Below, in pieces: positions 8,122 to 48,508 of a DNA stretch of 64,000 nt. Below the pieces are notes generated by a model. It saw only the letters and a program-made list of their open reading frames with translations. It was not told where the DNA came from and searched no databases. Made by a program: the position numbers and the translations under genes. This DNA comes from Planctomycetaceae bacterium (lineage in GTDB: Bacteria; Planctomycetota; Planctomycetia; Pirellulales; Lacipirellulaceae). The first letter of the stretch is position 1. The number at the start of each line of letters is the position of its first letter. The DNA is taken from NCBI GenBank assembly GCA_003233055.1, contig QIKP01000017.1, positions 8,299-72,298 on the forward strand, read 5' to 3'.

Positions 8122-9249
8122 ATGAATTCCTCGCTCTTCTCTGCCCCTTCGATCTGGACCCTCAGTGGACAGATTTCGGACGATGACTCGATGCGTCGAT
8201 TCACGCTCGACCTTTCTCCCTTCACGGTCGGACGGCGTCCCGATCGCTCGTTGACCCTACCGAGCGCGACCGTTTCGGGCAAGCATGCGGAATTTCTTAT
8301 TGAAGGCGAACAGCTTTACGTCCACGATCTTGGTAGCACCAATGGCACGTTCGTCAACGGCGACCGTGTGCGAGATCGCTGCGTGGTGAACCACGGCGAC
8401 CTCGTGCAATTCGCCCAGATCGTTTTCCGCACTAGCCGCGATACGGCGGCCACGCACCACTCCACGGTCGAAAACAACTCGGCCGATCGCGCATTAGCCC
8501 TCATCCAGTTCGACAAACTGATGACCGACCGGGCTGTCTTGCCTCACTTCCAACCGATCATCACGATCGACGACCGGGCGATCATCGGCTACGAAGTTCT
8601 CGGGCGCAGCCGGCTCTTTGGGCTCGCAGATCCCCATACGATGTTCATGGCGGCGGCGGTGCTCAATCTGGAATCGGAGCTAAGCCGTATTTTTCGTGTG
8701 GAAGGCATTCGCGAGGGGAAACCGTTGCCTTCGCAGCAGTTGTTCTTCGTCAATACCCACCCCAACGAAATCGCCGACCTCGAGTTGTTGATCTTCTCCC
8801 TTCGTGAACTACGAGAAATGGTTCCCGACAGGCCCATTATCCTGGAAATCCACGAAGCGACCGCTACCAAGACCACCGAGATGCGCGAGCTTCGCGCCGC
8901 GCTTACGGACCTCGATATGGGCCTCGCGTACGACGACTTTGGTGCGGGACAGGCAAGGCTCGTGGAGCTGGTCGATGTGCCGCCCGACTATCTGAAGTTC
9001 GACATGGCGCTGGTCCAAGGCATCGCCAGTGCCAGTCTTGGTCGTCAGCAAATGGTGAAGCAGCTTGTGCAGATGACGCGCGATCTGGGAATCCAACCGC
9101 TGGCCGAGGGAATCGAAACGGAAGAAGACCATGCCCTCTGCTCGGAAATCGGATTCTCGACCGCTCAAGGATTCCTTTACGGAAAGCCGGCCACGGCCAA
9201 AGCAACCCTCGCATCAGTTCAACAGGTCGCGGAATCGGCGCTGAGCTAG
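8122..9249 (+). CDS. FHA domain + EAL c-di-GMP phosphodiesterase
   Basis: FHA: VGRR...SGKHA...DLGSTNGTFVNG; EAL: FQPI, GYEVLGR, FVN, EIHE, DDFGAG, YLKFD, AEGIET, QGFLY. Start taken at ATG 8122. Confidence 0.9.
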   Translation: MNSSLFSAPSIWTLSGQISDDDSMRRFTLDLSPFTVGRRPDRSLTLPSATVSGKHAEFLIEGEQLYVHDLGSTNGTFVNGDRVRDRCVVNHGDLVQFAQIVFRTSRDTAATHHSTVENNSADRALALIQFDKLMTDRAVLPHFQPIITIDDRAIIGYEVLGRSRLFGLADPHTMFMAAAVLNLESELSRIFRVEGIREGKPLPSQQLFFVNTHPNEIADLELLIFSLRELREMVPDRPIILEIHEATATKTTEMRELRAALTDLDMGLAYDDFGAGQARLVELVDVPPDYLKFDMALVQGIASASLGRQQMVKQLVQMTRDLGIQPLAEGIETEEDHALCSEIGFSTAQGFLYGKPATAKATLASVQQVAESALS

Positions 9250-10876: not shown

Positions 10877-11246
10877 CAGGACGATTGCAAAGTGGCTTTT
10901 TTGAACCGCCAAGAACGCCAAGCAAGAAAGTAACCGTTCACGGTGGGCAGAAGGAACCACGAATCGAACGAATCCGACGAATAACGAGCCGAGGAGGCCC
11001 CTAGCTCCGACCCAGTATCCCCGATCAAGCTTGGTCGGGGATACTGCGGGGCGATTTCTTTCTACCTCCTCCAGTCGGCCCATCGCTTGCGTCGCATTCG
11101 TCGAATTCGTTAGATTCGTGGTTTCCCCTGCCTTGGATTTTGTGAACGGTTACGAAAGAAAGAAGCCGAGTGGATAAACCACTTGTTTTGAATCTTTTTT
11201 CTCTGCTTGGCGTCCTTGGCGGTTTTTTGACTTTGCAATCGTCCTG
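10877..11246. mobile_element. Nested multi-layer palindromic repeat (MITE/REP composite)
   Basis: Five concentric inverted-repeat pairs: 10877-10893/11230-11246, 10904-10924/11204-11224, 10930-10941/11142-11153, 10955-10982/11096-11123, central hairpin 11013-11046. Confidence 0.85.
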
Positions 11247-34565: not shown

Positions 34566-35477
34566 ATGCTCCGTGAATCCGCAACTCCCGGCGAGCGCTT
34601 CCGAGCGGCTCTCGACGAGGAGAGGCCGCTCCAGTTGGCTGGCACGATCAATGCGTATTCGGCCCTGCTGGCGGAACGCGCTGGATTTCGAGCGATCTAC
34701 CTTTCGGGTGCCGGCGTGGCGAATGCCTCGTTCGGATTCCCCGATCTCGGGGTGACGACGCTGACGGATGTTTGCGAAGAAGTCCGCCGCATTACCGGGG
34801 CGACCCAACTCCCCCTGATGGTCGATGCCGATACCGGTTGGGGAGGGGCGATCATGATCGCCCGTACGATGCGGGACCTTGATCGTGCCGGCGCTGCAGG
34901 CTGCCACTTGGAAGACCAAGTCCTGACGAAACGATGCGGACATCGCCCTGGCAAGCAGCTTGTCTCGACGACCGAAATGTGTGACCGCCTGAAGGGGGCC
35001 GTTGACGGCCGATCGGACGAATCGTTTTTCCTGATGGCTCGTACCGACGCCGCTGCCATCGAGGGACAGGGTGCCGCGATCGAGCGAGCGCAAGCCTATG
35101 TGGCGGCCGGTGCCGACGCGATTTTCGCCGAAGCCTTCACAACGATCGATCAGTACCGCGAGATGACTGCGGCGGTCGAGGTGCCAGTGTTGGCCAACAT
35201 CACGGAGTTTGGCAAAACGCCCCTCTTCACCGTGACCCAACTGGGCGAGGCAGGCGTGCGAATGACACTGTATCCGCTCAGCGCGTTTCGCGCCATGAGC
35301 CAAGCGGCGTTGATGGTCTATGAAACACTCCGGCGCGACGGGACGCAAAAAGGGGTACTCGAGACCATGCAAACACGCGAATCTCTCTACGATGTTCTGG
35401 GGTACCATGCTCTTGAAAAGAAAACCGACCACCGTTCCAGGTCCGAAGAAGGAACCACGAATCCGACGAATGAGTGA
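34566..35477 (+). CDS. prpB: 2-methylisocitrate lyase
   Basis: [25 protein letters not shown] signature, [23 protein letters not shown]. Confidence 0.93.
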
Positions 35478-35541
35478 TGCCATTTTTTCGCTATTCGCGT
35501 CATTCGTGGTTTTTCCTGCCTTGGCTTCCGTGAACGGTTAC
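35429..35541. mobile_element. MITE-like palindromic element overlapping the prpB 3' end
   Basis: Degenerate left end CCACCGTTCCAGG, inner AACCACGAAT/ATTCGTGGTT pair (35453/35502), right end CCGTGAACGGTTAC (35528-35541). Confidence 0.7.
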
Positions 35542-47088: not shown

Positions 47089-47895
47089 ATGAGAATCCTT
47101 CGTTTCGTCGATCCCGCCGGCAATACGGGCTATGGTTGCGAGCACTCGGAGGGTGGTGTCACCCGTCTTGATGGCGAGCTCTTTGGCCCCCACCACGACA
47201 CGGGGGAAGCGGTCGAAGTCGCTCAGCGGCTTGCACCGCTCGCGCCATGCGACATCTACTGCATCGGCCTCAACTACGCGAAGCATGCGGAAGAAGGAGG
47301 CAAGCCGATCCCTGAATATCCGGTCGTCTTCATGAAGTCGAGCTCTGCGGTACAGCATCCGGGCGAGCCGATCGTCCTGCCTCGCAAGTTGCGAAGCGAT
47401 CGCGTCGACTACGAATGCGAACTGGCCGTGGTGATCGGCCGGGCCTGCAAGAACGCAACGCGAGACGAAGCGCTCGACTACGTTTTGGGCTACACCTGTG
47501 GGAACGACGTCAGCGCCCGCGACTGGCAAAAAAAAGGGGGCGGCGGGCAGTGGGTGCGAGGTAAGACCTTCGACACGTTTGCCCCACTCGGTCCGGTACT
47601 CGTGACCCAAGATGAAATCCCGAACCCCAACGACCTCCGCATCCGCACGACGCTCAATGGCCAAGTGATGCAAGACTGGAGTACAAGCGACATGATTTTC
47701 GATGTGCCAAGGCTCATCGAATTTTTAAGTGGTAGCACCACTTTACTGCCAGGCACGGTAATCTTTACTGGCACGCCCCATGGCGTTGGCTTCGCGCGCA
47801 AGCCTCCGGTTTATTTGCAGCCTGGCGACAGCGTGACGGTCGAAATCGAGAAGATCGGCCAGTTGACGAACCAGGTCGTGGAAGAAGAAATCTAA
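47089..47895 (+). CDS. Fumarylacetoacetate hydrolase family protein
   Basis: CIGLNYAKH, FMKS, DYECELAVVIG, GNDVSARDWQ, GKTFDTFAPLGP, IFTGTPHGVG. Confidence 0.94.
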   Translation: MRILRFVDPAGNTGYGCEHSEGGVTRLDGELFGPHHDTGEAVEVAQRLAPLAPCDIYCIGLNYAKHAEEGGKPIPEYPVVFMKSSSAVQHPGEPIVLPRKLRSDRVDYECELAVVIGRACKNATRDEALDYVLGYTCGNDVSARDWQKKGGGGQWVRGKTFDTFAPLGPVLVTQDEIPNPNDLRIRTTLNGQVMQDWSTSDMIFDVPRLIEFLSGSTTLLPGTVIFTGTPHGVGFARKPPVYLQPGDSVTVEIEKIGQLTNQVVEEEI

Positions 47896-48036
47896 CCGTT
47901 CACGGCCAGTAGGTTGGGCTTCTAGCCCGACGCTTTTCCCCCGACAAGGCGTAGCTCGTCGGCTAAGGGTTACACGCTTTCCTTTGATGAGCGTCTCGTT
48001 CCGGGGATAACGCTCTTTCGAATCGTAAACGGTTAC
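47892..48036. mobile_element. MITE-like element with REP cargo and flanking direct repeat
   Basis: Ends CTAACCGTTCACGG / CGTAAACGGTTAC; GTAG-type REP 47909-47931; family 1 REP 47941-47962; AAGAAATCTAAC at 47885 and 48037. Confidence 0.78.
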
Positions 48037-48043
48037 AAGAAAT

Positions 48044-48508
48044 CTAACGGCCCTGCGATTCCAGGACTCCCTCTGGCCGGACCACTCTCTTGGAGAGGGG
48101 ACTGGGGAGAGGGTCCGCAATGGCGATCCGCCGAGCCTTCTTGGTACTTCCCAGCTCCATGCTTTTACGGAAGGCCAAAAGCTGTTCGTCTGCTTGTAGG
48201 GCGGTAAGGAATCCTAATTCGACGACGCACTTGTCGATCGGTTTTCGGCGATCGGATTGTAGCATCAAGAGTTCCGCCAAATCGCGCTTCGTCAGCAGGC
48301 CAAGCTCGACCGCGATGTCGCCAAAACGGTCGTGGGGAAGATCCGTTTGCACGCGCAGCACACGAAACACATCCTGCGCGGCCATCCGGCCTTCTTCGAG
48401 CGCAATCAGGCCAATCGGAGGAAGTTCCTTACTCTGATGGGCGAGCGCTGCGACGAGCTGCTCTGCGGTAATCTTACGCTGCTGATGTAGAAACATTCCA
48501 AACTTCAT
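48044..48508 (-). CDS. Small protein with four tandem MshEN-like repeats (candidate c-di-GMP receptor)
   Basis: KFGMFL..RKITAEQL.AAL.HQ; PIGLIALEEGRM...V.RVL.VQ; RFGDIAVELGLLT..DL.ELL.LQ; PIDKCVVELGFLT. Confidence 0.7.
   Translation of the reverse strand: MKFGMFLHQQRKITAEQLVAALAHQSKELPPIGLIALEEGRMAAQDVFRVLRVQTDLPHDRFGDIAVELGLLTKRDLAELLMLQSDRRKPIDKCVVELGFLTALQADEQLLAFRKSMELGSTKKARRIAIADPLPSPLSKRVVRPEGVLESQGR

Follow-up and report, generated by a model that had tools for sequence, protein, structure and literature searches.

A 144-bp MITE with IS66-type ends, probably mobilized in trans, at the stop codons of two convergent planctomycete genes

Bacterial MITEs, such as RUP, Correia/NEMIS, MITEAba12 and the IS982-derived MITE of Cardinium, are small, non-coding elements of under ~600 bp whose terminal inverted repeats match those of an insertion sequence. 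They are bordered by duplications of a fixed length, occur in high copy, reside mostly at gene ends, contain hairpins and are sometimes nested. Among the enzymes that could move such elements, the tyrosine (HUH) transposases of the IS200/IS605 and RAYT groups make no target duplications. The ends of the IS66 family, by comparison, begin with 5′-GTAA, and its direct repeats are of 8–9 bp. Within this family, ISDge4 of the ISBst12 group has been transposed experimentally; it has the ends GTAACTGCTCAGCA, a transposase of 449 aa and a direct repeat of 8 bp, and in the same work IS66-family transposition is called insufficiently characterized (PMC12898284). IS66 goes unmentioned in a 2024 review of MITEs (PMC10969869), and we found no description of an IS66-derived MITE in the literature searched. 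We describe here a segment, at positions 47893–48036 of a planctomycete sequence, that is very probably a MITE moved in trans by an IS66-family transposase into the target AAGAAATC, at the overlapping stop codons of two convergent genes.

The window, the whole stretch of 64,000 nucleotides that was analysed, corresponds to positions 8299–72298 of contig C11 in an assembly of 79 contigs and 2.78 Mb (59% G+C; ~90% complete). Two copies of AAGAAATCTAAC, at 47885–47896 and 48037–48048, were located by the repeat finder. They are 100% identical, have a spacing of 152 bp, and constitute the sole perfect 12-bp direct repeat within 47700–48250. Between the two copies lies a segment of 144/145 bp with inverted GTAACCGTTCACGG-type ends, the arms of which, TAACCGTTCACG (47893–47904) and CGTAAACGGTTA (48024–48035), are 92% complementary over 12 nt. 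Repeated flanks and matching ends at this place had been claimed in an original prediction made from the letters of the window, and we recovered both. The features of the locus are as follows.

47089..47895, + strand: gene for a hydrolase of the fumarylacetoacetate-hydrolase family, 268 aa, left flank (PF01557, E 2.9e-79)
47885..47892, no strand: left copy of the 8-bp target-site duplication, AAGAAATC (register from the 8-bp rule of the family)
47893..48036, no strand: MITE, 144 bp, non-coding, a mosaic of repeat modules
47893..47905, + strand: left terminal inverted repeat, TAACCGTTCACGG, which is the consensus GTAACCGTTCACGG without its first G
47909..47931, + strand: GTAG-headed hairpin GTAGGTTGGGCTTCTAGCCCGAC, followed by GCTTTTCC; the hairpin is present in the minimum-energy fold
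47941..47965, + strand: copy of a high-copy palindrome (CCGACGAGGCGTAGCTCGTCGGCTA; also given as CCGACAAGGCGTAGCTCGTCGGCTA), the 'family 1 REP' of the original prediction
47966..48022, no strand: right-hand interior, whose reverse complement is the sub-terminal module TCGAAAGAGCG..GGAACGAGACGCTCATCA
48023..48036, − strand: right terminal inverted repeat, GTAACCGTTTACGA, with two mismatches to the consensus
48037..48044, no strand: right copy of the 8-bp target-site duplication, AAGAAATC
48044..48508, − strand: right flanking gene, 154 aa, without Pfam match; conserved convergent neighbour of the hydrolase

At the left junction, the sequence reads ..GAAGAAG, then AAGAAATC and then TAACCGTTCACGG.., and at the right junction it reads ..TCGTAAACGGTTAC, then AAGAAATC and then TAACGGCCC... 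The stop codon of the hydrolase, TAA (47893–47895), is formed by the first three bases of the insert, and the protein, with the C-terminus ..VVEEEI*, is equal in length to its orthologues in six same-genus genomes. The stop of the 154-aa gene is CTA at 48044–48046, read as TAG. The MITE has no transposase gene, 144 bp being too short for one. As RNA, it folds with −53.2 kcal/mol (z −2.6), and no Rfam match was obtained in 47700–48250. A BLAST search with the element revealed no full-length sibling of the 144-bp mosaic elsewhere in the genome. A 125-aa frame at 47743–48120 on the − strand is only a product of the mechanical listing of open reading frames.

We then considered the ends as a family. 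In the window, GTAACCGTTCACGG was found at eight sites with up to two mismatches, against 0.41 expected, and none of 100 shuffles reached eight. Included in these eight are all the other ends named in the original prediction, at 10930, 11153, 25220, 35541 and 36748. Genome-wide (2.78 Mb), 244 sites were counted at the same threshold, compared with 6–49 for eight permuted patterns. When neighbouring ends within 700 bp were paired, we observed 41 convergent, 6 divergent and 11 tandem pairs, and the 41 paired elements span 75–594 bp. The 8-bp outer flanks of these 41 pairs are identical at 8/8 positions in five cases, at 7/8 in three and at 6/8 in seven. Flank identity of at least 7/8 was therefore seen in 19.5% of the pairs, compared with 0.55% in mismatched controls made from the flanks of different elements. 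Exact flank duplications had a length of 8 bp five times, 4 bp three times and 7 bp once, while none was of 5, 6 or 9–12 bp. A flank-recurrence scan yielded seven perfect 8-bp duplications (GAATAATG, GAAGTTTT, CCGGCTTC, CGGCCCTC, CATGCAGC, GTTGCTTG and CGAACGAT) and none in four offset controls. Two more copies in the window, at 10930–11153 and ~35429–35541, have duplications that match at 7/8 positions.

A target profile was taken over 109 non-redundant flanks. G amounts to 50% at position −8, A+T to 62–72% at −7 to −2 (background, 41%) and C to 43% at −1. As the departure from the background composition is confined to the 8 bases adjoining the end, the target is approximately G-(A/T)6-C, a palindromic consensus of the kind expected for a symmetric transposition complex. 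In a genome of 59% G+C, this preference would account for the occurrence of copies at gene ends. The A- or T-rich flanks noted in the original prediction are hence a genome-wide property of the ends, and the A-rich target preference proposed there is real, though now sharpened to G-(A/T)6-C within the 8 duplicated bases.

A replicate of this family is present in a genome of a related genus (G021), which contains a homogeneous MITE family of 200–410 bp having the same end architecture. Its ends read GTAACCGTTCACGG, then an A-rich spacer, and then GAACCACGAAG, for which the window counterpart reads ..GAACCACGAAT. In a sample of 20 copies from G021, the 8-bp duplication was perfect in 13 and matched at 7/8 in four more, and a 9-bp duplication was seen in 0/20. 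It had been claimed that the family transposes, with genome-wide pairing of the ends and duplications at other copies as the proposed checks. The excess of convergent pairs, together with the fixed 8-bp duplications here (seven perfect cases, none in the controls) and in G021, bears this out.

Following the 8-bp rule of the family, the duplication at the present locus is the 8 bp AAGAAATC, which has a terminal C and an A/T-rich core in agreement with the target profile. This assignment refines the 12-bp repeat: its four other bases, TAAC, belong to the terminus of the element in the left copy and to native sequence in the right copy. From the original estimate of 7–12 bp, the repeat itself is retained and the true duplication is narrowed down to 8 bp. 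The right terminus, ..CGGTTAC, is complete, and the element at 47893–48036 begins with TAACC, without the first G of the consensus. We infer that this terminal G was lost from the left end after the insertion. An alternative register, with a C-variant end and a 7-bp duplication, is a poorer fit to the family rule than the 8-bp register; the C-variant end does occur in the genome, at C4:16021. In either register the left junction fits the rule imperfectly, since one requires that the terminal G was lost and the other that a C-variant end goes with a duplication of an atypical 7 bp. On the preferred 8-bp register, the present hydrolase stop TAA (47893–47895) is element sequence. With the G restored, the hydrolase frame continues as VTVHGQ and stops at the TAG of the GTAG hairpin, and therefore loss of the terminal G may have been favoured.

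It could be argued that the segment arrived without any transposase, by illegitimate recombination or by gene conversion from another copy of the repeat, via the TAAC microhomology, and that the 12-bp repeat mimics a duplication. A repeat of 12 bp instead of 8, the incomplete left terminus and the mosaic interior without a full-length sibling in the genome would all be compatible with such an origin. However, AAGAAATC together with the intact right terminus fits both the 8-bp rule and the G-W6-C profile, clean 8-bp duplications border no fewer than seven other copies in this genome and 13 of those in G021, and such exact keeping of both stop codons would be unexpected from recombination. We therefore consider an arrival of this sort improbable.

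Transposition into overlapping stop codons, the reading that we prefer, implies an empty site of a particular form. When 152 bp (one repeat plus the insert) were removed, the window read ..ATCTAACGG.., and the TAA stop of the + strand and the CTA stop of the − strand overlapped as CTAA, just as had been foreseen in the original prediction. In this species, the predicted empty site would read ..GAAGAAATCTAACGGCC.. / ..GAAGAAATCTAACGGCCCTG... We observed the convergent pair of hydrolase and 154-aa gene side by side in 6/6 same-genus genomes, where the identities to the window proteins are 76–80% for the hydrolase and 50–57% for the 154-aa protein. Five of these genomes show a 2-nt overlap of the stops (TTAG, CTAG, CTAA, CTAA and TTAA), in which the stop of the − gene starts one base ahead of that of the + gene; in the sixth genome, 25 bases separate the stops.

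The empty-site case draws on the layout in relatives whose proteins are just 50–80% identical. A near-identical empty allele was not found in sequencing runs, protein records or metagenome contigs: no sequencing run contained the stretch, the hydrolase protein had no exact record, the exact left-flank pattern was absent from metagenome contigs, and no metagenome relative of the 154-aa protein was obtained. Thus, the empty sites that the original prediction had expected in relatives exist as a layout, seen in 5/6 genomes of the genus, and not as a near-identical allele. The 14-mer end is at background in these six genomes (0–3 hits compared with 118 here, at up to one mismatch), and therefore the insertion is specific to this lineage; it would postdate the divergence of the lineage from these six.

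The distribution of the 14-mer led to its probable parent. It is patchy among the relatives, being abundant in G021 (134 hits), G033 (41), G020 (27) and G026 (26). Of the 26 sites in G026, all of which were listed, 22 match perfectly, and a contig start is found ~126–141 bases away from eight of them, as is characteristic of an element present in many copies. The elements also coincide with contig breaks in G020 and G026. On G026:C41, perfect 14-mers bound an element of 1121 bp having one ORF that matches PF03050 (DDE_Tnp_IS66; E 3e-29), and fragments of this protein adjoin the 14-mer at further sites of G026 and also in G033. Besides its MITEs, G021 has retained an IS66-type copy of 1441 bp, now decayed, that is bounded by these termini.

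When species-representative genomes were scanned, 42 loci were obtained; most come from metagenome-assembled genomes of Planctomycetota, and the isolate Maioricimonas sp. JC845 is also represented. At ~20 of these loci, the 14-mer is found at both ends of an element of 1.45–1.6 kb, with the ends GTAACCGTTCAC.., and each such element has one sense ORF of 460–465 aa and lacks the accessory genes tnpA/tnpB that accompany canonical IS66 transposases. This ORF scored 270.9 bits against NF033517 (IS66 family transposase; cut-off 180) and also matched PF03050 (E 6e-32), zf-IS66 and DUF6444. Elements of ~1.5 kb with GTAA ends, one ORF and repeats of 8–9 bp fit the description of the ISBst12 group of the IS66 family. 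Judged from the single-ORF layout and the family HMMs, the parent is probably ISBst12-group-like. Perfect 9-bp duplications were observed in 4/20 full-length loci, with no other length among the 20. The full-length insertion sequences thus give 9-bp duplications, whereas the MITEs give 8-bp ones, and the two are alike over the first 14–16 bp only. In view of this difference in duplication length, the enzyme that moved the MITEs is assigned to the clade and not to one particular member of it.

In this genome, of which the assembly is ~90% complete, no close relative of the cognate transposase was found. The sole IS66-like gene of the genome, on contig C78, was rejected as the source; it is ~25% identical to the cognate clade and frameshifted. 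Contig C78 has no 14-mer even at four mismatches. A search of this genome for an autonomous copy, in the form of an end pair 700–8000 bp apart with a duplication, also gave none. The best long end pair has a 6/8 flank match at 6.4 kb, and this match is probably due to chance. As the assembled genome has no cognate transposase, the copies are orphans, and the copy at this locus is most likely an immobile fossil.

We also analysed the interior of the element, where the original prediction had placed a GTAG REP and a family 1 REP as cargo. Element positions 1–46 (terminal repeat and GTAG hairpin) have ~33 copies by BLAST, positions 47–74 (the CCGACGAGGCGTAGCTCGTCGGCTA palindrome) gave >130 BLAST hits, and the remainder of the element is rare. 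The sub-terminal module TCGAAAGAGCG..GGAACGAGACGCTCATCA is common to one-ended copies on contigs C47, C65 and C48. The best partial sibling, at C3:58686–58758 (73 bp, 92% identity), consists of terminal repeat, hairpin and palindrome in an equal arrangement, which means that at least one copying of this 74-bp block has taken place. Both palindromes of the claim are present. The GTAG hairpin, however, has 49 genomic copies, 18 of which are placed 3–4 nt from a full terminal repeat, while ~20 further ones come after a partial ..GTTCACGG, as read from the listing; it is usually followed by 5–8 T. On account of the fixed 3–4 nt offset and the T-run, we concluded that this hairpin is a terminator-like module integral to one type of end and not a captured REP, and this part of the cargo claim was given up. 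The hairpin of the present copy was not called in the terminator scan because its T-run has only 4 T; other copies bear 7–8 T. The second palindrome belongs to an independent family of 222 copies, which forms 27 inverted doublets and has 10 of its members inside paired elements; the copy at this locus may have ridden along or may have inserted later.

An interior composed of a GTAG-headed hairpin and a member of the 222-copy palindrome family with its inverted doublets could also suggest that the whole insert is a REP/REPIN-type palindrome cluster (BIME-like) spread by a RAYT, the direct repeat being incidental. The genome does have four Y1_Tnp (PF01797) genes, and GTAG-tagged REPs have been reported in Planctomycetes (PMC3733652). 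Yet the 222-copy palindrome flanks 0/4 of these genes within 1.5 kb, and a GTAG hairpin together with an element end was found within this distance for the C64 gene only. A RAYT link of the internal palindromes was rejected as unsupported, since the repeats do not flank the Y1_Tnp genes. The strict 8-bp duplication in the element family also disagrees with a RAYT origin, as do outer ends that match an IS66-family element and a GTAG hairpin at a fixed offset from the terminal repeat. For the outer element this explanation is largely refuted, and we regard it as very unlikely. Finally, the view that the spacer is an ordinary intergenic one, and that its direct repeat and its inverted ends are similar by chance, has the shortness of the motifs and nothing else in its favour; it is refuted by the eight window sites (0.41 expected, 0/100 shuffles), by the genome-wide statistics and by the missing spacer in five of the six relatives.

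For the MITE moved in trans, we propose the following course of events. A single-ORF, ISBst12-group-like DDE transposase of the IS66 family would recognise the GTAACCGTTCACGG termini and mobilize the MITE. Insertion would occur into the 8-bp target AAGAAATC, where the hydrolase and its convergent neighbour shared overlapping stops (CTAA); sites of the preferred type G-(A/T)6-C would cluster at gene ends in a genome of 59% G+C. The 8-bp staggered cut, when repaired, would leave the target duplicated, and both reading frames would survive. Later, the copy would lose its first G, and its right end would come to have two mismatches. This course incorporates the observed terminal repeats, 8-bp rule, target profile, empty-site layout in relatives and link of the termini to an IS66 transposase, and adds mobilization in trans, which we infer.

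It is possible, if somewhat doubtful, that the GTAACCGTTCACGG-ended elements make up a horizontally spreading MITE superfamily of Planctomycetota, driven by single-ORF IS66-family transposases and steered to gene ends by a strict 8-bp G-W6-C target. They would then be the first MITEs attributable to the IS66 family. On the same tentative footing, loss of the G at the present locus would have made the TAA of the element the working stop of the hydrolase, and the GTAG hairpin with its T-run would now serve as a terminator between the formerly overlapping genes.

The locus provides a clean natural example of a MITE placed on overlapping convergent stop codons with neither gene harmed. It ties a large and previously unassigned repeat family of Pirellulales-type genomes, with ~240 ends here and ~130 in another genus, to a specific transposase clade. 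The duplication length and the target consensus of the family are now defined, which aids the annotation of repeat-rich planctomycete metagenome-assembled genomes. A mini-element together with the transposase from the cultured isolate Maioricimonas sp. JC845 offers a testable pairing. No new kind of mechanism is revealed by these results.

When compared with the known systems, the element shares GTAG-headed interior palindromes with the REP/REPIN–RAYT systems, and its second palindrome family likewise forms inverted doublets. Unlike these systems, it is bounded by terminal repeats of the transposase type and by a duplication of 8 bp, and no RAYT gene is flanked by the palindromes. The parent resembles the ISBst12 group (e.g. 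ISDge4 of Deinococcus geothermalis, PMC12898284) in its GTAAC ends, one ORF of ~450–465 aa and length of ~1.5 kb. The direct repeats are of 8 bp in the ISBst12 group and of 9 bp in the planctomycete full-length copies. Past GTAAC, the terminal repeats diverge (GTAACCGTTCACGG here versus GTAACTGCTCAGCA in ISDge4), and the window element differs from the group in having no ORF. With RUP, Correia/NEMIS, MITEAba12 and the Cardinium MITE, it has in common all the properties named at the outset. It differs from them in that its ends match an insertion sequence of the IS66 family, and in the unusually heterogeneous mosaic interiors of the elements here, which have only ~14–45 bp of end sequence in common. 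The assignment of the element as a MITE, with its parent in the IS66 family, is well supported, and it represents an ordinary kind of mobile DNA.

Within the window, another copy of the MITE family was found, in which one end has degenerated:

Window 35429-35541: MITE family copy, degenerate left end ACCACCGTTCCAGG

The two copies of its 8-bp target-site duplication match at 7 of 8 positions (GAAAACCG / GAAAATCG). The copy at window 10930-11153 and that at C21:20905-21115 of the source genome, G000, are alike beyond the element itself, sharing ~20 bp of flank at either end (..ccaagaacgccaag..aaa / gaaagaaagaa.ccgagtgg). Hence the element lies within a larger repeat, and it is this larger repeat that has moved as a unit.

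Next to the studied copy, the last ~25 residues of the 154-aa gene (window 48047-48130) are conserved in none of the relatives, the alignments ending at residues 128-140. This tail crosses a 21-nt imperfect palindrome (48069-48113) found nowhere else in the genome.

The element ends also recur in G000 as part of a tandem module, present at these and other sites:

C44:10647-10708: tandem end-hairpin module
C3:150721-150766: tandem end-hairpin module
C69:213-276: tandem end-hairpin module

The order is a full terminal repeat, 3 nt, the GTAG hairpin, T7-8, a second terminal repeat (GCAACCGTTCACGA) and, after it, GTCGAAAGAG.., both terminal repeats being in the same orientation. Such a module could have arisen by insertion of a hairpin unit next to an end, or by duplication of the end. 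Short repeats are very abundant in this genome (244 element ends, and 222 plus 49 palindromes). Its assembly is 2.78 Mb at an estimated completeness of 90%, and six genomes of the same genus measure 4.6-8.1 Mb; G000 may represent a reduced, repeat-invaded lineage.

Two other genomes rich in the 14-mer, G026 and G020, have many contigs starting ~126 bases inside a 14-mer-ended element, with the terminus at positions ~125-140 pointing inward. Breaks in both assemblies are due in large part to this element.

IS66-family sequences were found in several settings, two of them as follows:

G000 C78:1354-2913: frameshifted IS66-family transposase, two frames (262 aa and 240 aa)
G021:C12:62153-64143: decayed IS66-type copy (L105), 1441 bp

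The C78 gene (L001) has a tyrosine-recombinase-like ORF as its neighbour; the contig measures 3.1 kb, and the gene bears no relation to the MITE termini. Insertion-sequence copies with 60-66% identity to the planctomycete copies occur in metagenome-assembled genomes labelled Methylocella, Hyphomicrobiaceae, Anaerolineaceae, Oligoflexales and Acidobacteriaceae (L045, L050, L051, L055 and L058/L059), reflecting either cross-phylum transfer or binning error. Immediately after the G021 copy come the interior and the right end of a MITE; it looks as though the IS66-type element had replaced or entered the MITE's left end. The full-length elements (L044, L058, L059 and L064) duplicate 9 bp of target, whereas the MITEs of G000 and G021, which have the 14-bp termini in common with them, duplicate 8 bp.
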